Positions 561 through 57,401 of a DNA stretch of 64,000 nt are shown piece after piece (position 1 is the stretch's first letter; each line of letters starts with the position of its first letter). The position numbers and the translations under genes were made by a program. Origin of the DNA: Spirochaetia bacterium (lineage in GTDB: Bacteria; Spirochaetota; Spirochaetia; CADAEX01); contig CAXXHA010000010.1 in the NCBI GenBank assembly GCA_963662265.2, forward strand, positions 32,001 to 96,000, written 5' to 3'. Below the pieces are notes generated by a model. That model had not been told where the DNA came from, ran no database searches, and saw only the letters and a list, made by a program, of their open reading frames with translations.

Positions 561-2186
561 TTACTCAAACACACGCTCAGAAAGCCTTAGATCCTCGCAT
601 TCACTTATTCCGGGAAGAAGAATATCCTGCTTGTTCTGAAAATTCTCCATCCGCCTGAGGATACGGTCAAGCATTTTAACAGCCTTGAGAATATACGGGC
701 CCTTGTTAAGCATAACACACTCACATCTGTGCCCCATTGCGGCATCTGTAATTTCTGACCTTGTAGGAATCCCCTTCTTGGCAAGATTTTCAAGAACCTG
801 GGTAGCCCAGATTACAGGAATATGTGCTGCAGCGCATGTCCTGATAATCTCCTCCTGAACCGCGGCAAAGCTTTTCCAGCCTGCCTCAACCGCAAGATCA
901 CCCCGCGCAATCATCACACCAACAGGATATCTCTTCATGGCTGTGAGAAGAAGTTCCGGTAGGCTGCAGAACCCCTCCCTTGTTTCAATCTTCAGTATAA
1001 TCCCGGTTTCTGAATCACGCTTTTCAAGCTCCTCAATAAGGGCCTCCACATCGGAAGGCCTGTTTACAAATGAAAGGTTAACAGCATCGGCATGTTCGGC
1101 AATAAAGGCAATATCCTGCCTGTCCTTCCCGGTAAAACCTGAAAAAACATAGCCTGTTGTGGGGAAATTAATCCCCTTGTCCTGCCGGAGCTTGGCAGAT
1201 GCCCCTTTTACAGATGTAATTCCGACAACAGCACCTTCCGGGTCTGTGCTTTCAATAACCCCCTCAATCTTGCCGTCATCAAAAAAAACAGCATCACCCT
1301 GTTTTACATGATCAAGTATTTCAGGAAGAGTGCAGGATACGCAGGCGGGGGACAGGACATTTCCCTCTTTATCAAGAGAGGCATCCCTGCCAGGGACAGC
1401 TTTCCTCATAATACGAAGAGAATCACCCTCGCCCAGCCTGATAAAGTCACGGGGAGGCTTTCCGCTGCTCCCGGGTAATACCAGGTCATCAGCAGCAGGC
1501 ACACCACTGTCTCTGGAAGATTCATTCCCTGTTTTAGAAGACTTCCCTTCCCCCCTTGGAGACTTTATTACACCTGTCCTTATCTTGGGCCCAGCAAGAT
1601 CCATCATTACAGTGCATTTCCGCCCCAGCTCAGTTTCTGCCTTTTTAATGTTATCAATCATTTTTTTCCAGACTTGAGCATTGTCATGTGCGCAGTTTAT
1701 CCTGGCGCAGTTCATACCTGTCCTGATAAGATCTTTTATGAAATCATAATCCTCAGATGCGGAAGAGGGGATTGTAACCATGATGCGTGTATTTCTTTTT
1801 TCCGGCTTCCGCCCGAAAAGAACCCGTGTATTCTTTTTGAGTATCTTTCGCCCCTTTACCGCAGTAATACCTTTGAGAGATTTTCTGCCTTCGGTATCTT
1901 CGTTTAAAAAAGATGTAATCTTCCTGATTGAATCAAGACCGGACATTACATGATCTTCTATCCTGCCGAAACCGATCAGCCCGGAATCTGTTATCCTGCT
2001 CTGTATCCTGTCAAGATCGAAAGTCCTTAATGCAAGATAATGAACAAGGTTTCGCGCGCTCTTGCCGAATCTCGGATGAACCTCTTCAAGATTACTTCTG
2101 TAACGGGATTCGAGAGAAAGAGCCTTATCTATGATTTTATTTATATTTTCCCCGATATAGGAGAGTTTCTTTTCTATCTTCTTCAT
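561..2186 (-). CDS. pyk: Pyruvate kinase (long N-terminal extension type)
   Basis: RINCAH, DLAGPKIRTG, ILKIET, MIARGDLAVE, WATQVLE, PTRSEITDA, CVMLNKG motifs. Confidence 0.92.
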   Translation of the reverse strand: MKKIEKKLSYIGENINKIIDKALSLESRYRSNLEEVHPRFGKSARNLVHYLALRTFDLDRIQSRITDSGLIGFGRIEDHVMSGLDSIRKITSFLNEDTEGRKSLKGITAVKGRKILKKNTRVLFGRKPEKRNTRIMVTIPSSASEDYDFIKDLIRTGMNCARINCAHDNAQVWKKMIDNIKKAETELGRKCTVMMDLAGPKIRTGVIKSPRGEGKSSKTGNESSRDSGVPAADDLVLPGSSGKPPRDFIRLGEGDSLRIMRKAVPGRDASLDKEGNVLSPACVSCTLPEILDHVKQGDAVFFDDGKIEGVIESTDPEGAVVGITSVKGASAKLRQDKGINFPTTGYVFSGFTGKDRQDIAFIAEHADAVNLSFVNRPSDVEALIEELEKRDSETGIILKIETREGFCSLPELLLTAMKRYPVGVMIARGDLAVEAGWKSFAAVQEEIIRTCAAAHIPVIWATQVLENLAKKGIPTRSEITDAAMGHRCECVMLNKGPYILKAVKMLDRILRRMENFQNKQDILLPGISECEDLRLSERVFE

Positions 2187-3624: not shown

Positions 3625-4005
3625 TTACAGTAATACAAAATATTTTCCAAACCTCCTGAATAACAGGATACCTGTAAACCCCATCAGGAGATCCATGAAA
3701 CTGAAAGTTCTGGATGGGAATAATATCTGGGAAAACTCTTCCGCAATTATCAGAATCGATGTAAGCAGGAAAGATAAGGAAATATTCTTTTTCATGATAT
3801 ACACCTCTTTTTTATATAAAAAATAATCAAGTAAGATGTAGAAAAATCCATATAAAACAGCATGAGCCAGCCAGTCATAATGAGGTATTCCGGATAAAAG
3901 AAAGAGAGGCAGCCTGCCGATATCTGCCAGTATAATGACCAATACAATCAGAAAACAATAGGGGATAAATATAAATGCTTTTTTCATAATCACTCCATGT
4001 TTCAT
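3625..4005 (-). CDS. VanZ-like small membrane protein
   Basis: DWLAHAVLYG, EEFSQILFPSRTFSFMDL motifs; hydrophobic segments. Confidence 0.75.
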   Translation of the reverse strand: MKHGVIMKKAFIFIPYCFLIVLVIILADIGRLPLFLLSGIPHYDWLAHAVLYGFFYILLDYFLYKKEVYIMKKNISLSFLLTSILIIAEEFSQILFPSRTFSFMDLLMGFTGILLFRRFGKYFVLL

Positions 4006-7991: not shown

Positions 7992-8666
7992 TTATTCTCG
8001 CATTAAATATATTACTTGTTTTCGAAACCAGGATCTTGGAGCCATTTTTCGATAATAGTTCACAATTAAATGAAATGAACATTTACCAAGTTTTTTCCCG
8101 CATCCACATGGACAAACCTTTTTATTTCCAACTCTTTTCTTAAGTCCCATAAGCCGAAATGCCTGGATAATTTGATAATCTTCTTCTAAACCTAATAGTA
8201 AAGAATAGTCATCCAAAGCTCCGGAATTCCCGTGGTCCAGTTCTCCGAACATAAAATCATCACCGTACTTTAATTTAACAGAGACAGCATAAAAGTAAGG
8301 GATTAAACATCTCTCTGCAAAAACAACCAGATCAGGAGAATTATTCACTATCGATAATAGACGGAGAGGAGATCCGAGACAGAGTGAACCGTCAGGATTT
8401 ACGTGAAAATCACCATTCTTAGGAATCCTCCCTTTTGTTTCTTTTACTACCGGAACTACTTGAGGAAAACCATAAGGAACTAAAAGTTCAATATTAAATT
8501 GGTCACAAATAGTTCCTCTGTTGTTTGTATCTGCAGTAAAACTAAATATTCCTCGAAGGTATATACCCAATTCAGATGATGGAGCAGTGGACATGCCCGG
8601 ATATTCGGAGAGAAATTTTTCTATTCCAAATTGTTTAGACTTTTCAAGCACATTTATACTCGCCAT
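7992..8666 (-). CDS. CBASS-associated E2/UBC-like protein with C-terminal SEC-C-type zinc motif
   Basis: P.GFP...P..KET, FHVNPDGSLCLG (E2-like H-x-N...C catalytic segment), CPCGCGKKLGKC; overlaps the end of the CD-NTase gene. Confidence 0.75.
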   Translation of the reverse strand: MASINVLEKSKQFGIEKFLSEYPGMSTAPSSELGIYLRGIFSFTADTNNRGTICDQFNIELLVPYGFPQVVPVVKETKGRIPKNGDFHVNPDGSLCLGSPLRLLSIVNNSPDLVVFAERCLIPYFYAVSVKLKYGDDFMFGELDHGNSGALDDYSLLLGLEEDYQIIQAFRLMGLKKRVGNKKVCPCGCGKKLGKCSFHLIVNYYRKMAPRSWFRKQVIYLMRE

Positions 8667-20153: not shown

Positions 20154-20636
20154 CTACATCCCCATGCTTTCAAGCCATTCCTTTTCATTCTTTTTCATCT
20201 CATCTTCAGTAAGCTTCCACTTATTTGTCGCTATAGCCCAGACATGGCCGAAGGGATCAAGGACTTTCCCCATCCTGTCTCCCCAGAATGCATCCATTAT
20301 TTCATCCACAATTTCAGATCCGTTTTCCACCATTCCATTGTAAACAGCATCACAGTCTTCAACATATATAAACAAGCTCACAGTAGTCCCGTTAATAGCA
20401 CCTTTCTCCACACCTCCCGGATAGGAATCAGCCATCATAAGATTTGTATCCCCAATTCTTATCATTGAATGCATTATCTTATCACTGCCTGGAAAACTGT
20501 AAGGGGGAAAAACAAGTTCCGCCCCCAGCACTTTCCTGTAATATTCAATAGCTTCTGAACAGTTTCCATTAAACCACAGATTAGCTGTTACATTGTTCAT
20601 CCCTTCTGGGACAGGTTTTAATGCTTTTTCAGCCAT
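20154..20636 (-). CDS. VOC/glyoxalase-family protein (PhnB-like)
   Basis: AIEYY..VLGA, IMHS.IRIGD..LMMAD, DAFWGDRMGKVLDPFGHVW. Confidence 0.88.
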   Translation of the reverse strand: MAEKALKPVPEGMNNVTANLWFNGNCSEAIEYYRKVLGAELVFPPYSFPGSDKIMHSMIRIGDTNLMMADSYPGGVEKGAINGTTVSLFIYVEDCDAVYNGMVENGSEIVDEIMDAFWGDRMGKVLDPFGHVWAIATNKWKLTEDEMKKNEKEWLESMGM

Positions 20637-20913
20637 TAAAATTCTCCTTGTATAGAGATCTGTAAGTATGAATAATTAAGCCTTGAATTTTCTGTTTAAA
20701 CACCTGAAACATTTTATACCTTACTTTTATTAATAGTAGTTTCAAAATGATCTGTTTTCAAAAGAAACTCTTACATGAGGCTGTATTTACAATAAATTTT
20801 AATAAAATCAGATATTCTGAAGGCTTTATAAATTAAACAGGACGAAAATTCTTTCTTCAGGACCGGAAGATAATTTCATATTTAAACAAGCAGTGTTTTA
20901 AATATAAAATAAT

Positions 20914-20969
20914 ATCGATATTATTGTATCCAATATTGACATTTTTCTTATTCGATACTATATTATCCA
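20914..20969 (+). promoter_or_regulatory. Array unit 1 promoter with ATCGAT-type operator repeats
   Basis: TTGACA 20936-20941, 17 nt, TATATT 20959-20964; ATCGAT-N8-ATCCAA upstream and TTCGAT-N8-ATCCAT across the -10. Confidence 0.75.
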
Positions 20970-21044
20970 TACAGGTTGGGCAAACAACCTGTAGGTGAAA
21001 ATATTTTGTTTTTGAGAAAATCAAAAATAAAAAAAGAAAATAGA

Positions 21045-21152
21045 ATGTACGAAAGACCTCTGGTAAATGGCAAAATAATATCAGAAATAAGGTCTTTCAA
21101 TAAAAAAACTGCAAATACGTCCGGCAAAACAGTATTTGCAGTTATAATCTAA
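21045..21152 (+). pseudogene. Decayed paralog of the unit-2 47-aa microprotein (MYERPLVNGKIISEIRSFNKKTANTSGKTVFAVII)
   Basis: ERPLVNGK vs ERPFINGK and ANTSGKT vs AEATGKS. Upstream TTGAGAAAATCAAAAATAAAA aligns with TTGAGGAGATCAAAATGAAA of unit 2, with the RBS and ATG altered. Confidence 0.5.
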
Positions 21153-21202
21153 GACTTTTTTATAGATTCCTCCTAACCTTCTAAAAAGAGTTTTATTCAT
21201 GG

Positions 21203-21237
21203 GAACCTGCTGTAAGTTTTACAGCAGGTTCTTTTTT
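21203..21237 (+). terminator. Intrinsic terminator, unit 1
   Basis: GAACCTGCTGTAA-gtt-TTACAGCAGGTTC-TTTTTT. Confidence 0.85.
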
Positions 21238-21309
21238 CATTATTACCTCCTGTAATAATGAGTTGTTATTTATAAAACTGCAGTGAGTTTCACTGCAGTT
21301 TTTCTTTTT
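21238..21309 (+). other. Extra module: hairpin with CTCCT loop followed by a second terminator
   Basis: CATTATTAC-ctcct-GTAATAATG (21238-21260); AAAACTGCAGTGA-gtt-TCACTGCAGTTTT + T-rich tail (21274-21309). Confidence 0.6.
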
Positions 21310-21578
21310 GCTGGCCGTTGCTGCATAAACAGGCTTTTTATACTTATAATTCTGCATTTATTTCACAGACTTATCCGCTGATCACCTGGCAGAAATCTTA
21401 TATTTCCCTATTAACAGCTTTCAAGGACTCTAAAGCTGTTAAACTTATTTCAACAGTGTTTTATCCTCCCGGAATAATTCTAATTATCACGCAGTCTAAA
21501 CACTGTTTTGCCCATATTCCCATATGGAGCCCACCTGTCTACCTATCTAACTACCCAGAACCATGTAGATAAATTTTT

Positions 21579-21635
21579 ATCGATAATTACATATCTTATA
21601 TTGACATTTTTTATTTTCGATAGTATGTTATCGAT
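21579..21635 (+). promoter_or_regulatory. Array unit 2 promoter with ATCGAT-type operator repeats
   Basis: TTGACA 21601-21606, 17 nt, TATGTT 21624-21629; ATCGAT at 21579; TCGATA-gtatgt-TATCGA across the -10. Confidence 0.78.
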
Positions 21636-21676
21636 AGTTAGAGATTGAAATAAATAGTATTTCAAGGAGGACAATT

Positions 21677-21772
21677 ATGTTAGAAATTTTAATTGTAGCT
21701 ATTATAGCAGCTGGTGCAGTTTTTGCATTCATAGAAGACGGTCGTGTTAGTCCTAACGGAATCGACTGGTAA
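21677..21772 (+). CDS. 31-aa single-TM micropeptide MLEILIVAIIAAGAVFAFIEDGRVSPNGIDW
   Basis: AAGGAGG RBS 6 nt upstream; hydrophobic N-terminal helix; clear paralog at 22205-22306 with conserved IAAG...AFIEDG...PN..DW. Confidence 0.75.
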   Translation: MLEILIVAIIAAGAVFAFIEDGRVSPNGIDW

Positions 21773-21803
21773 TCTAGAAAAAACTTGTTTTGAGGAGATC
21801 AAA

Positions 21804-21947
21804 ATGAAAAAAATACTTAGTAAATTATCAGAAAGACCATTTATCAATGGCAAACAGAGACATATTAAAAAAGAAGGCCTTTCAATTAAGGCAGTTGCAG
21901 AAGCAACAGGAAAATCAATTGAATCTGTACTTTCAATGAAATTCTAA
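21804..21947 (+). CDS. 47-aa basic microprotein with an HTH-like C-terminus
   Basis: GAGGAG RBS; GLSIKAVAEATGKSIESV fits the S-x-x-x-[VI]-A-x-x-x-G-x-S-x-x-x-V helix-turn-helix pattern; decayed paralog in unit 1. Confidence 0.6.
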   Translation: MKKILSKLSERPFINGKQRHIKKEGLSIKAVAEATGKSIESVLSMKF

Positions 21948-21991
21948 AACTTCTTTTTAACTTCAAACCTTCTAAATTTTGAGTTTTATTC

Positions 21992-22028
21992 AAAAGACCT
22001 GCTGAGCCGTATACAGCAGGTCTTTTTT
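21992..22028 (+). terminator. Intrinsic terminator, unit 2
   Basis: AAAAGACCTGCTG-agccgtata-CAGCAGGTCTTTTTT; stem core ACCTGCTG/CAGCAGGT shared with the unit 1 terminator. Confidence 0.85.
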
Positions 22029-22105
22029 AATTTTTCAGTGAAAATCATTGATAACCTTTGTTCAGGAAGTAGATAAATAAAAATCATGCATTTTGATAAT
22101 ATATT

Positions 22106-22162
22106 ATCGATAATGCTGTATCCATACTTGACTTTTTCAGTTATCCTTTATACATTATCAAT
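22106..22162 (+). promoter_or_regulatory. Array unit 3 promoter with ATCGAT-type operator repeats
   Basis: TTGACT 22128-22133, 17 nt, TACATT 22151-22156; ATCGAT-N8-ATCCAT upstream, same spacing as units 1 and 2. Confidence 0.72.
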
Positions 22163-22204
22163 AACTTTAAATACGATTTTAATAATCTTGTTAAGGAGGC
22201 CAGC

Positions 22205-22306
22205 ATGTTACTTATCAATACTTTAGTAATCATGGCTATTGCAGCAGGAGTTTTAGCTGCATTCATTGAAGATGGAAAAACAGCACCAAATTGCTGTGAC
22301 TGGTAG
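22205..22306 (+). CDS. 33-aa single-TM micropeptide MLLINTLVIMAIAAGVLAAFIEDGKTAPNCCDW
   Basis: AAGGAGG RBS 5 nt upstream; paralog of 21677-21772 with synonymous codon changes in the shared FIEDG/PN/DW residues. Confidence 0.75.
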   Translation: MLLINTLVIMAIAAGVLAAFIEDGKTAPNCCDW

Positions 22307-22356
22307 AAAGTAGTCTGAAGATTTCAGATACTTGTAAAAACTGAAAACAATCAGTA

Positions 22357-22550
22357 GAAAGGTCTGTAATTTACAACAGGATTAACAATATAGAGAAAGG
22401 AAGACCTTTCACATTACATTCCATGATGCTGCAGCAAAAACAACAGAATCGGCATCCGGAATGTAAAACAAAAGACTTTTTAGATTCCTCCAAAATTCTA
22501 AAAAGAGTTTTATTTCCAGGCCCCGCAGCGTTGCTGAGGGGCCTTTTTTT
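22357..22550 (+). ncRNA. Putative structured RNA / 3' UTR-derived sRNA, array unit 3
   Basis: Stems 22357-22365/22402-22410, 22414-22422/22458-22466 and 22476-22484/22497-22505 with TTCCTCC in the loop; terminator 22518-22550. Confidence 0.6.
22518..22550 (+). terminator. Intrinsic terminator, unit 3
   Basis: AGGCCCC-g-CAGC-gtt-GCTG-a-GGGGCCT + T7. Confidence 0.82.
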
Positions 22551-22685
22551 CCCCCTTTCACGCAAATACCCATTCTCTCGGCAGCTTCATAAGATTTAAT
22601 AATAAAATTCCGCCTCTTGCGATTTATATGCATATCATGCAACTTCAACCATCCAGGTATTTTTACAAAATAATTACAGACTGTA

Positions 22686-22740
22686 TTGACTTTTTCCCTT
22701 TTCGATAGTATTATATCGATAACAAGTTACCGATAACAAG
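22686..22740 (+). promoter_or_regulatory. Array unit 4 promoter (no recognisable ORF follows)
   Basis: TTGACT 22686-22691, 17 nt, TATTAT 22709-22714; TCGATA-gtatta-TATCGA plus direct repeat CGATAACAAG at 22717 and 22731 (14-bp period). Confidence 0.65.
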
Positions 22741-22802
22741 CAATATTTCTGATGGCCAGAAATGTTTGACTTTATAAATACAACTGGAATAAGGCTGGAG
22801 AT

Positions 22803-22834
22803 AAAAAAAATCCCGGATCCGAAGAACCGGGATT
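22803..22834 (-). terminator. Intrinsic terminator of gdhA
   Basis: A-run then ATCCCGG...CCGGGAT stem downstream of the gdhA stop. Confidence 0.8.
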
Positions 22835-22871
22835 TATATAAGCCTAATCAGGCTAAATATAAAACTATATC

Positions 22872-24209
22872 CTAGTAACCGAGATCAAGCATTGCATCTG
22901 CAACTTTCTTGAAACCGGCAATATTAGCACCGTTGATGTAGTTTACAAAACCTGAAGCATCTTTGCCTTCTCTAACACAAGCAGCGTGGATGTCTTTCAT
23001 GATTACTTTGAGTTTTGCATCAACTTCTTCAGATGACCAGTTGTATTTCATTGAGTTCTGGCACATTTCAAGACCTGATACTGCAACACCACCGGCATTA
23101 GCAGCTTTACCAGGACCAAACGGGATCTTGTTTTTAACAAACTCAACTGCAGCATCTGCAGTACAGCCCATGTTGGATGTTTCAACAACATATTTAACAC
23201 CGTTTGAGATAAGAGCTTTTGCATCATCGAGAGTAAGCTCGTTCTGGAAAGCACAGGGGAATGCCATATCAACTTTAAGTTCCCATGGTTTTTTACCTGC
23301 AACAAATTTTGCGCCGAATTTTTCAGCGTAAGGAGCTACAACATCATTGTTGGAAGCTCTGAGCTCAAGCATATAGTCAAATTTTTCTTTTGTATTGATA
23401 CCTGCTTCATCATAGATGTATCCGTCAGGTCCAGAAATTGCCACTACTTTACCACCAAGTTCAGTAGCCTTCATTACAGCACCCCAGGCAACATTACCGA
23501 AACCTGAAACAGCAATTGTTTTGCCTTTCATTGAATCATTGTTTGTTTTGAGCATTTCATCAGCAAAATACATTGTACCAAAACCAGTTGCTTCAGGTCT
23601 TACAAGTGAACCGCCCCAGTTAAGGCCTTTACCTGTGAGTACACCTGTGTTTTCAGCTCTGAGTCTCTTGTACTGACCATACATGAAACCGATTTCTCTT
23701 CCGCCTACTCCGATATCACCTGCAGGAACGTCAGTCTGAGGACCGATATATTTCTGAAGTTCTGTCATGAAACTTCGACAGAATCTCATGATTTCTGCAT
23801 CTGATTTACCTTTAGGATTAAAGTCTGAACCACCTTTACCTCCACCCATTGGGAGAGTAGTAAGACTGTTTTTGAAAATCTGCTCAAATCCGAGGAATTT
23901 AAGAGTTCCGAGAGTAACGCTTGGGTGGAATCTGAGTCCGCCCTTATATGGACCAATAGCGTTGTTAAACTGAACTCTGTAAGCCTTGTTTACCTGTACT
24001 TCACCGTTATCATCTTCCCATTCAACTTTGAACATGAAAGTTCTGTCCGGCTCAGTAATTCTTTCAAGGATTTTTGCATCTACATATGCAGGGTTGTCGT
24101 TAACTACATCAATAATAGATTCAACTACTTCTTTTGCAGCCTGAATAAATTCCGGCTGAGCTGGGTTTTTTCTTTCCAGTTCTGCCATAAATTCGTCAAG
24201 ATTATACAT
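22872..24209 (-). CDS. gdhA: NADP-specific glutamate dehydrogenase
   Basis: GPYKGGLRFHPSV, PMGGGKGGSDF, DVPAGDIGVG, RPEATGFG, KAANAGGVAVSGLEM; AAGGAG RBS before ATG 24209. Confidence 0.96.
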   Translation of the reverse strand: MYNLDEFMAELERKNPAQPEFIQAAKEVVESIIDVVNDNPAYVDAKILERITEPDRTFMFKVEWEDDNGEVQVNKAYRVQFNNAIGPYKGGLRFHPSVTLGTLKFLGFEQIFKNSLTTLPMGGGKGGSDFNPKGKSDAEIMRFCRSFMTELQKYIGPQTDVPAGDIGVGGREIGFMYGQYKRLRAENTGVLTGKGLNWGGSLVRPEATGFGTMYFADEMLKTNNDSMKGKTIAVSGFGNVAWGAVMKATELGGKVVAISGPDGYIYDEAGINTKEKFDYMLELRASNNDVVAPYAEKFGAKFVAGKKPWELKVDMAFPCAFQNELTLDDAKALISNGVKYVVETSNMGCTADAAVEFVKNKIPFGPGKAANAGGVAVSGLEMCQNSMKYNWSSEEVDAKLKVIMKDIHAACVREGKDASGFVNYINGANIAGFKKVADAMLDLGY

Positions 24210-24414
24210 TTCTAACAGCTCCTTAAAACATTTTAATACCACCCCTCAGGGCGGTATTACTTATCTATATATAAAGCCTATTTCTGATATTAATCAAGTA
24301 TTAATATTGGCCTATCTATACATCTATACAAGTTAAATCATGAATATTGTTGATATTTAACATAGTGGTGTATTATTATTAAGAAAACGAACATTCTTTT
24401 TTAAGGAATTTACA

Positions 24415-55991: not shown

Positions 55992-57401
55992 TTATTTCTT
56001 ACCAGGAGGAAGATGTAGACAGCACCCGAGTGAATCTGCAGCAGCCTCCATAAGCGCTTCTGAAACTGTCGGATGGGCATGAACAATACCTGCCAGTTCA
56101 TTTACTGTTATCTCCATACTCATAAGAGAAGCAGCCTCATTAATTATCTCAGATGCTCCATCTCCCACAATATGAACCCCGAGTATTTCACCATAAACAG
56201 GATCGGAAATTATTTTTACAAAACCTTCACCAGCTCCCGATGCCAATGCTTTTCCATTGGCAGATAATGGGAAAAATCCAACAGAATATTTCCCCCCGGC
56301 AGCAGCTTCATCTTCTGTCAAACCAATCCCGGCAGCTTCAGGACTTGTATAAACAACAGAAGGCACATAACTGAGCGAAGAATCATCTTCAACGCGACCT
56401 TTCAATGCATGTTCTGCGGCAAACTCTCCCATCTTGAAAGCTGCATGAGCCAGCATTTTTCTGCCATTTATATCACCTGGAGCATAAACCCCCTTAATGC
56501 TGGTCTCCATATGATCATTGACAACAATCTTTCCTTTCTCAACAAGGATAGGCTGATCACCTGCGCATGAAAGATCAGCTTTTCTGCCGACAGAGAGCAG
56601 GATATTTTCATATTCCTTTTCTGTTTTATCATTAAATACAGCGCTAAGCCCCGAACCGGTCTCTTTCACTGCATCAACACTTCGTGAAGTCGCTATTCCA
56701 ATCCCGTGCTTTTCAAGCGAAGCCTTAATATGTTTCGATATATCCCGGTCCATAAAAGGAAGTATCCTGTCTCCCAGTTCAACTATATCGACATGGCATC
56801 CGAATGATGAAAATATCAGAGCCATTTCAACACCAATCACCCCGCCGCCTACAATAAGGAGTGATTCCGGAACATTATCAAGGTCAAGTATTTCATTGCT
56901 TGTTAATACCCGGCTGCTTTCAAATCCCGGAATATTCAGCCTTACAGCCTGGGAACCTCCCGCAAGGATGACAGACTTCCCTTCAATAATATCATTATTA
57001 TCGATAACAACCTTTCCATCACCTGCAAGTACCCCTGTACCCTTGAACAAAGCCACCTGGTTACTCTTGAGAAGCATTTCTACTCCGCTTGTGAGTTTTT
57101 TAACTATCTTATTTTTTTCTTTTACAGCTTTTTTCATATCAACAGAGACTTTTTTGCTTTCAAGGACTATCCCTCTTGCATCAGCCTTGCCAAGCTGGTT
57201 GATAATTTCAGCACTTTTCAGAAATGTCTTTGTGGGGATACACCCCCGGTTAAGACATGTCCCCCCCACAACATCTTTTTCCACAAGGGCAACTTTTCCC
57301 CCAATCCTGGCAGCTTTGATTGCGGAAATATATCCCGCAGGCCCGCCGCCAATTACTACAACATCGAACTTGTTTTTTTCCACACTGCTACCTCTTCTCA
57401 C
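55992..57401 (-). CDS. lpdA: Dihydrolipoamide dehydrogenase (E3)
   Basis: GGGPAGY, GGTCLNRGCIPTK, GGGVIGVE, MLAHAA, HAHPTVSE. Confidence 0.95.
   Translation of the reverse strand: MRRGSSVEKNKFDVVVIGGGPAGYISAIKAARIGGKVALVEKDVVGGTCLNRGCIPTKTFLKSAEIINQLGKADARGIVLESKKVSVDMKKAVKEKNKIVKKLTSGVEMLLKSNQVALFKGTGVLAGDGKVVIDNNDIIEGKSVILAGGSQAVRLNIPGFESSRVLTSNEILDLDNVPESLLIVGGGVIGVEMALIFSSFGCHVDIVELGDRILPFMDRDISKHIKASLEKHGIGIATSRSVDAVKETGSGLSAVFNDKTEKEYENILLSVGRKADLSCAGDQPILVEKGKIVVNDHMETSIKGVYAPGDINGRKMLAHAAFKMGEFAAEHALKGRVEDDSSLSYVPSVVYTSPEAAGIGLTEDEAAAGGKYSVGFFPLSANGKALASGAGEGFVKIISDPVYGEILGVHIVGDGASEIINEAASLMSMEITVNELAGIVHAHPTVSEALMEAAADSLGCCLHLPPGKK

Follow-up and report, generated by a model that had tools for sequence, protein, structure and literature searches.

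Two very small genes, here called pep1 and pep2, were analyzed in a 64,000-nucleotide (nt) stretch of DNA from a Spirochaetia bacterium (contig CAXXHA010000010.1, positions 32,001 to 96,000; the whole stretch is called the window, and coordinates without a contig name are counted from its first letter). They encode peptides of 31 and 33 amino acids (aa), each with one predicted transmembrane (TM) helix, and both lie in an array of similar promoter-led units, or cassettes, between a glyoxalase-family gene and gdhA. Comparisons of the locus were drawn from four related genomes; the organism's own assembly (G000) comprises 3.77 Mb in 41 contigs and is 90.6% complete. The features of the two genes are as follows.

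21664..21670, plus strand: Shine-Dalgarno sequence of pep1, AAGGAGG, 6 nt before the ATG
21677..21772, plus strand, stop codon included: pep1, gene of the 31-aa single-TM micropeptide, with an orthologue in the same-genus genome G001; the public collection has proteins that are identical or nearly so (P0007)
22193..22199, plus strand: Shine-Dalgarno sequence of pep2, AAGGAGG, 5 nt before the ATG
22205..22306, plus strand, stop codon included: pep2, gene of the 33-aa single-TM micropeptide, 85% identical to its orthologue in G001

An earlier, sequence-only reading had quoted these two open reading frames (ORFs) behind AAGGAGG, and both are present exactly as quoted. It had also called them paralogues. 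A six-frame search of G000 with the 33-aa peptide agreed, returning two matches, pep2 itself and pep1 (expect value [E] 4.6e-6, 47% identity); nothing else in the 3.77-Mb assembly matched. The claim of selection on the protein, drawn from the different codons used for shared residues, held up as well. Between pep1 and pep2, the proportion of differences was 0.83 at synonymous sites (pS), which is near saturation, compared to 0.37 at nonsynonymous sites (pN). The ratio of nonsynonymous to synonymous substitution rates (dN/dS) was 0.19 for pep1 and its G001 orthologue (9.0 synonymous and 8.0 nonsynonymous differences) and 0.11 for pep2 and its orthologue (9.5 and 5.5, respectively); the genes being short, these ratios are based on 17 and 15 differences, but the direction is the same throughout. 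A near-identical strain, represented by contigs from four sequencing runs, differed at 5 bases across positions 20900 to 22600 and at none in the three ORFs there, which is too few to judge selection. pep1 and pep2 are paralogues under purifying selection. Each peptide has one hydrophobic stretch of 19 residues (mean Kyte-Doolittle hydropathy of 2.69 for pep1 and 2.47 for pep2) followed by a 12-residue tail with a net charge of -2, in line with the single TM helix and acidic tail described before. It is very probable that both are real protein-coding genes for membrane peptides.

The cassette array and its 47-residue protein

The array contains three complete paralogous cassettes and one orphan promoter. 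Its parts, from left to right, are listed below.

20154-20636, minus strand: glyoxalase-family gene, left flank of the array
20915..20969, plus strand: P0, the cassette-0 promoter (-35 at 20936-20941, -10 at 20959-20964), with operators at 20915-20932 and 20952-20969
21019..21152, plus strand: cassette-0 orf47 copy, decayed, with ribosome-binding site and ATG lost and with indels
21153..21240, plus strand: cassette-0 3' module, with a UUCCUCC-loop hairpin (box at 21164-21173) and a terminator (21201-21233)
21566..21634, plus strand: P1, the cassette-1 promoter (-35 TTGACA at 21601-21606, -10 TATGTT at 21624-21629)
21566-21583 and 21580-21597, plus strand: distal operators of P1
21617-21634, plus strand: proximal operator of P1, TCGATAG-TATG-TTATCGA, over the -10
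21804..21947, plus strand: orf47, gene of a very basic 47-aa protein, putatively cotranscribed with pep1, with ribosome-binding site GAGGAG at 21792-21797
21995..22029, plus strand: cassette-1 terminator of the pep1-orf47 transcript, an inverted repeat followed by a T run
22093..22156, plus strand: P2, the cassette-2 promoter (-35 TTGACT at 22128-22133, -10 TACATT at 22151-22156)
22093-22110 and 22107-22124, plus strand: distal operators of P2; the proximal one is degenerate
22357..22410, plus strand: hairpin GAAAGGUCU...AGACCUUUC in the orf47 remnant of cassette 2
22474..22550, plus strand: cassette-2 3' module, with a 9-bp hairpin, loop UUCCUCCAAAAU (box at 22482-22491) and a terminator (22519-22550)
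22686..22733, plus strand: P3, a fourth operator-promoter with two good operators and no cargo, directed toward the 3' end of gdhA, which converges on it
22872-24242, minus strand: gdhA, right flank of the array

All cassettes follow one plan, in which a sigma-70 promoter with 18-bp inverted repeats is followed by an optional peptide ORF, by orf47 or a remnant of it, by a CCUCC-loop hairpin, and by a terminator. Cassette 1 (P1, pep1, orf47, terminator) carries the sole intact orf47 of G000. In cassette 2, P2 and pep2 are followed by about 250 nt of orf47-like DNA that no longer codes and then by the hairpin and terminator at 22474-22550. Cassette 0 consists of P0, the decayed orf47 copy, and the hairpin and terminator at 21153-21240, and has no intact ORF in either G000 or G001. 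The array is conserved in G000, G001, and L030, a metagenome contig from a third genome, which has the same three cassettes and flanking genes and in which the cassette-0 orf47 paralogue is intact and 46 aa long. P3 is followed by neither a peptide gene nor orf47 nor a 3' module and is missing from both G001 and L030. In the related genome G002 only one cassette lies next to gdhA; it lacks a peptide and carries an orf47 homologue of 48 aa. Two irregularities of L030, two mutually compensating shifts (-1 and +1) in A-runs of the cassette-1 orf47 (3715-3858) and a glyoxalase gene split in two (2162-2648), are probably homopolymer errors of that record.

These comparisons suggest that the ancestral unit was promoter-orf47-hairpin-terminator, that a peptide gene of the type found in the window (type A, below) was added in front, and that the unit was then duplicated. 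The TTGTTAAGGAGG context in which the pep2 Shine-Dalgarno sequence is embedded also occurs at the stand-alone type-B peptide genes of G001 and G002.

On comparative grounds orf47 is a real gene as well, with five homologues at 74 to 97% identity and a dN/dS of 0.16 against G001. It matched no Pfam or NCBIfam family at E up to 1, and PHROGs and PADLOC gave nothing beyond chance level. An AlphaFold2 model built on a six-row alignment consists of a beta-hairpin and three short helices, with a predicted local distance difference test score (pLDDT) of 76. In a Foldseek search with this model the best E was 1.5, and most of the top rows were helix-turn-helix (HTH) domains with 23 to 26 residues aligned at 1.0 to 1.7 Å. 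A profile search of the PDB (best E of 0.42) and the ESM Atlas (HTH_3 clusters, at 0.87 only) gave weak leads. The C terminus of the protein is tentatively predicted to be HTH-like.

Distribution and residue signature of the peptides

The peptides belong to a small family without a name that is restricted to one genus and is missed by gene callers and family libraries. Neither Pfam, NCBIfam, PHROGs, nor PADLOC gave a family match beyond chance-level rows, and the ESM Atlas had no usable match for pep2. When a profile built from six peptides was run on 1.84 billion representative proteins, 10 scored at E of ≤0.001: nine peptides of 30 to 44 aa, whose unnamed clusters have one or two members each, and one unrelated protein of 897 aa. 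The search of related genomes that the sequence-only reading had called for found the family by six-frame translation in all three genomes of the genus. A credible match was found in none of the 16 other genomes of the taxonomic family, where the single weak match (G011) had no gene-like frame, and the family was present in 0 of 400 further genomes sampled across the phylum. Seventeen of these 400 gave matches at E of 0.01 to 0.1 only, nearly all within long ORFs, and the two or three matches with short frames had no gene-like start or tail on inspection. Most likely, the peptide genes are genuine, young, and lineage specific.

Two types of tail are found in the family. Type A, to which both window peptides belong, reads ...E-D-G-x-T/S-x-P-x-x-x-D-W, and the D-W is often directly preceded by one or two Cys. 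Type B, found in G001, G002, and metagenome proteins, reads ...E-D-x-x-E-A-H-H-K-x-x-W or is longer. The signature IAAG-x3-AFIEDG-x3-PN-x2-DW proposed earlier stands in part. Across 12 family members I12, A14, A19, and D23 (numbering of the 33-aa peptide) are invariant, and E22 and the terminal W each occur in 11, whereas the D-W ending occurs in 7 and the PN is not general. The case for a docking motif in a strictly terminal D-W is likewise weaker, since type-B tails end in E-W, K-W, or N-W after a His-rich stretch, although the terminal W is nearly invariant. The conserved small residues A14/G15 and A18/A19 fall on one face of the helix. Small residues on one face are a common helix-packing pattern, and their conservation here is suggestive of such packing.

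In G001 and G002 the type-B peptide gene is closely preceded by a second conserved micro-ORF with a strong ribosome-binding site. Neither it nor the adjoining gene was found in the G000 assembly.

L007 1214-1303, and L004 about 1815-1904 (minus strand): 29-aa single-TM micro-ORF, adjoining a double ABC ATPase gene

Operators and Rex as the candidate binding factor

Ten cassette promoters from three genomes could be aligned without gaps, showing a -35 of TTGAC[ATC], a 17-nt spacer, and a -10 of TAnnnT. At fixed positions in these promoters lies a shared operator, an 18-bp inverted repeat of 7-4-7 layout, TCGATAW-N4-WTATCGA. The proximal copy covers the -10 and the start site in P0, P1, and P3, and one or two overlapping distal copies end right before the -35. 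The tandem copies are spaced at a 14-bp register and built on the palindrome TATCGATA. This core is present seven times in the window compared to 0.9 expected, and none of 100 shuffles reached seven. The possibility that it is merely a common sequence was therefore rejected locally, though the genome-wide count of 102 is close to a rough expectation. Two further copies in the window lie at 8349-8356 and 56999-57006. Among the 58 genome-wide matches to the full motif in G000 at a threshold of at least 12/14, the intergenic share was raised (34, or 59%) compared to 22 of 70 (31%) for a reversed control and 4 of 22; non-ORF DNA makes up 18% of this genome. A P1-like promoter (21575-21636, with 9 other letters in 62) also occurs on short contigs from sequencing runs X1 and X7, next to a different upstream sequence, which means that related organisms there have further such promoters elsewhere. 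On G000 contig C8 (96484-96639), a gene is preceded by three copies of ATGATAAAAACTTATCAT spaced at a 69-bp period.

The layout of the cassette operator, 18 bp with a 7-4-7 arrangement, is that of Rex boxes. These are given as TTGTGAAW4TTCACAA in PMC2883068 and as sites of the TTGTTAA-N4-TTAACAA type in PMC5886521 (Table 5), so the half-site here, TCGATAW, differs from these published ones. The genes behind the motif point to Rex as well. In G000, a gene of Rex architecture (Pfam PF06971 plus PF02629) has two copies upstream, at distances of 93 and 34 nt, and the motif was found upstream of the best Rex match in 6 of 14 genomes, namely, G000, G001, and G002 (the rexA orthologue in all three) and G028, G037, and G027. 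The last three belong to three other families, and the motif genomes span four. Also behind the motif are a 2Fe-2S ferredoxin/HydS-like [FeFe]-hydrogenase operon (G000, with the orthologous operon in G001), NuoE-like 2Fe-2S genes, a Zn-dependent alcohol dehydrogenase, and a TIM-sugar kinase pair (G000). Two further genes, named from sequence without a family search, are an Fe-type alcohol dehydrogenase in G001 and, behind a tandem motif pair, ldh in G037. Since the operator is shared with rex and with genes for hydrogenase, alcohol dehydrogenase, and ldh, the cassette promoters are best read as Rex controlled, and we consider this probable, with a fair measure of doubt. Open-access full text yielded nothing on this system for the motif, for Rex in spirochaetes, or for Rex with small membrane proteins.

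G000 has three paralogues of Rex architecture, 30 to 50% identical to one another.

Contig C1:273842-274462: RexA, with TCGATA-type sites upstream
Contig C32:118700-119299: second Rex paralogue, with a TTATC-GT-GATAA palindrome
Contig C10:3917-4546: third Rex paralogue (RexC), with a canonical TGTGAA-type palindrome

RexC is the most distant of them and has the canonical-looking CTGTGAAATTTTTCACAG 33 nt upstream. This, set against the TCGATA sites at RexA, fits one operator type per paralogue, and the cassette operator may accordingly belong to one of the three. The protein encoded by orf47 was considered as a general binder of TATCGATA sites and rejected as the common factor, because genomes in which no orf47 was found have such sites in front of rex and ldh. 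A profile that does detect orf47 within the genus found it in none of five genomes outside it, including G028, G037, and G027. Within this genus the protein may still bind these sites.

Transcript structure, proposed function and known systems

The 3' modules hint at a possible second function for the transcripts. A box AGATTCCTCC...TTCT (TTCCTCC) stands before the terminator in 8 of the 10 cassettes. The cassette-0 module is identical between G000 and G001 at 101 of 103 bases, and both changes are compensatory changes in the terminator stem; coding DNA of the two genomes differs by about 15%. A second CCUCC-loop hairpin with a terminator follows cassette 0 at 21238-21302, also with compensatory changes in G001. 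Between the cassette-2 hairpin GAAAGGUCU/AGACCUUUC and its cassette-0 counterpart GAAAGACCU/AGGUCUUUC, two pairs are changed on both sides. The cassette-2 transcript (22163-22556) is strongly structured (z of -6.25, none of 100 shuffles as stable), and its minimum-energy fold puts UUCCUCC in a hairpin loop. It is suggestive that such CCUCC loops could pair with the AGGAGG of their own ribosome-binding sites or of other mRNAs. RNAalifold predicted no consensus pairs for a crude alignment of ten modules, probably because the terminator stems cannot be aligned by sequence. Rfam gave nothing at the gathering threshold in the window, and for positions 20800-23000 only chance-level rows, with no RsaE, at E up to 10. 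The module was found nowhere else in G000.

A working model can be proposed from these features. At low NADH/NAD+, a Rex paralogue of the RexA/B clade would sit on the TCGATAW-N4-WTATCGA sites and block transcription by abutting the -35 and covering the -10. When NADH rises, Rex would leave and the cassettes would be transcribed. The peptides would then be translated from perfect Shine-Dalgarno sites and would insert into the membrane as one helix, whose small-residue face (A14/G15 ... A18/A19) may pack against another membrane helix, with specificity coming from the conserved F-I-E-D boundary and the W-ended acidic tail. In this way they could tune a membrane protein, or the energetic state of the membrane, in reductive stress. 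As a whole, this composite of single-pass peptides, a redox-type repressor, and modulation in reductive stress stands at roughly even chances. Several points weigh against it. Neither end of pep1 or pep2 has a clear positive bias, and topology is for this reason not confidently predictable. In P2, upstream of pep2, the proximal operator is degenerate, and no operator of this kind accompanies the type-B peptide genes in G001 and G002, which means that redox control is not a trait of the peptide family. Genome-wide, the full motif shows no overall excess in G000 (58 matches compared to 70 for the reversed control), 9 of its 34 intergenic matches are the cassettes themselves, and only 6 of the 14 Rex upstream regions contain it. 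Finally, a harmless modulator and a peptide that damages the membrane cannot be told apart by sequence alone.

That last choice, toxin or small regulator, had been left undecided by the earlier reading, which was right that the genes are real but missed their context, the pep1-orf47 operon and the predicted repressor-type promoters. A type I toxin-like peptide would depolarize the membrane, and its translation would be checked either by its own 3' CCUCC loop acting on AAGGAGG or by an antisense RNA. Pairing between 3' and 5' ends does restrain translation in the hok and aapA1 mRNAs, and the CCUCC box before most cassette terminators, exposed in a hairpin loop in the cassette-2 fold, would suit such an arrangement, as would the small size, single TM helix, several copies, and very narrow distribution of the peptides. 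However, the pairing between loop and Shine-Dalgarno sequence would be just 5 to 6 bp, and the best-conserved copy of the CCUCC module belongs to cassette 0, where G000 and G001 lack an intact ORF for it to act on. As for an antisense RNA, a consensus scan found 17 promoter-like sites overall compared to 10.5 expected. Two of those on the minus strand lie at 21853-21824 and 22739-22710, but the first, the one site near pep1 that scores 10/12, is not kept in the G001 alignment, and the second lies in P3, itself absent from G001 and L030. In addition, pep1 shares an operon with a conserved protein gene, which is unusual for type I loci, the peptide tails are acidic whereas those of type I toxins are typically basic or polar, and no toxin family or toxin RNA was matched in Pfam, NCBIfam, PADLOC, or Rfam. 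A toxin is thus unlikely, and a condition-specific modulator is most likely the function, the toxin reading being the weaker of the two. The same 3' modules bear on another possibility, that the cassettes are mainly Rex-controlled riboregulators of the RoxS/RsaE kind and the peptides a later cargo with a related redox role. Cassette 0 keeps its promoter and nearly unchanged 3' module while its ORF has decayed, the second CCUCC-loop hairpin behind it shows compensatory changes, and the G002 cassette has no peptide at all. RoxS is repressed by Rex and uses C-rich regions, according to PMC5419742. The Rfam and RNAalifold searches speak against this, the module is limited to this one locus in G000, and the purifying selection on the peptide ORFs and orf47 makes the units at least mRNAs. 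A predominantly regulatory RNA is therefore rather doubtful, though it overlaps with the modulator explanation and does not exclude it.

Two other alternatives concern the peptides themselves. The membrane peptide might hold and release the HTH-like protein, which would act on DNA or RNA. This is in keeping with the putative cotranscription of pep1 and orf47 in G000, G001, and L030 and with peptide and orf47 proteins on public contigs of equal size (6664, 768719, 24576), which suggest further co-occurrence. However, orf47 occurs without a type-A peptide in G002, the cassette-2 peptide has no orf47, type-B peptides stand alone, and the common factor of the operator is something other than orf47, so that such a pair is quite improbable. 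It is more improbable still that the ORFs encode an exported precursor, from which a leader would be cut to free an acidic W-ended peptide of 12 to 14 residues, or are mere upstream ORFs. The F-I-E-D boundary and the W terminus are conserved, as a precursor would require, but the hydrophobic part is conserved as much as the tail, no basic n-region precedes it, and there is no processing or export gene nearby; taken along its full length, each ORF has a dN/dS far below 1, which argues against a sequence-independent role. Returning to the modulator under a redox-type repressor, an extended form of it can be imagined in which the array consists of tandem Rex-switched dual-function RNAs. Each would be the mRNA of a micropeptide (with or without the mini HTH protein) and also a RoxS-like CCUCC riboregulator silencing ribosome-binding sites, the two jointly resetting the NADH/NAD+ balance, and the array would show units born, duplicated, and stripped of coding cargo. 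We regard this extension as tentative and, taken as a whole, unlikely.

Small membrane proteins are badly underannotated and almost unknown in spirochaetes. The present family combines clear selection with an origin that can be dated to one genus, and reductive stress is predicted as its physiological cue. From a protein-coding unit to an RNA-only unit, the cassettes form a natural series, which may be informative for the origin of dual-function RNAs. A by-product is a proposed variant Rex operator for a spirochaetal Rex clade together with a first candidate regulon.

The closest parallels in function may be MgrB, MgtS, AcrZ, and CydX, small single-pass regulatory membrane proteins of enterobacteria. 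Like them, the peptides are 30 to 50 residues long, with one TM helix and a strong ribosome-binding site of their own, and are conserved as proteins; they are also predicted to be made under a specific regulator (operators of a common type are on both promoters) and are expected to pack their helix with a larger membrane protein. Unlike them, they come from another phylum, have an acidic tail ending in W, and show no sequence relation (no Pfam or NCBIfam match), and their predicted control is redox (Rex type) where that of MgrB and MgtS is Mg2+/PhoPQ. With type I toxins (Fst/Ldr, Hok, TisB, and AapA1) they have in common a small hydrophobic peptide in several copies, a lineage-restricted distribution, and a structured mRNA with a possible anti-Shine-Dalgarno element. 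They differ from these in the protein-gene operon, the predicted repressor-type promoter, the acidic tail, and the lack of a family match, and no conserved antisense RNA gene was seen at the locus. SgrS/SgrT, RNAIII/delta-haemolysin, and SR1/SR1P are dual-function small RNAs with a small peptide, and the cassettes resemble them in that one short transcript holds a peptide ORF and a module that could pair with other RNA; in contrast to them, the unit here stands in three to four tandem copies that vary in cargo. RoxS/RsaE of Firmicutes is described, in PMC5419742, as a Rex-repressed transcript with C-rich single-stranded motifs and a role in NAD+/NADH balance. Set against that description, the cassettes also have C-rich motifs in loops able to pair with G-rich ribosome-binding sites, and are presumed to be controlled by Rex as well, whereas they have no Rfam match, encode proteins as well, and belong to a spirochaete. 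Lastly, the operators are like those of Rex regulons in being 18-bp 7-4-7 repeats that overlap promoters and precede rex, hydrogenase, alcohol dehydrogenase, and ldh genes; compared to the published operators cited above, they differ in the half-site (TCGATAW rather than TTGTGAA or TTGTTAA) and in forming tandem arrays on TATCGATA at a 14-bp register.

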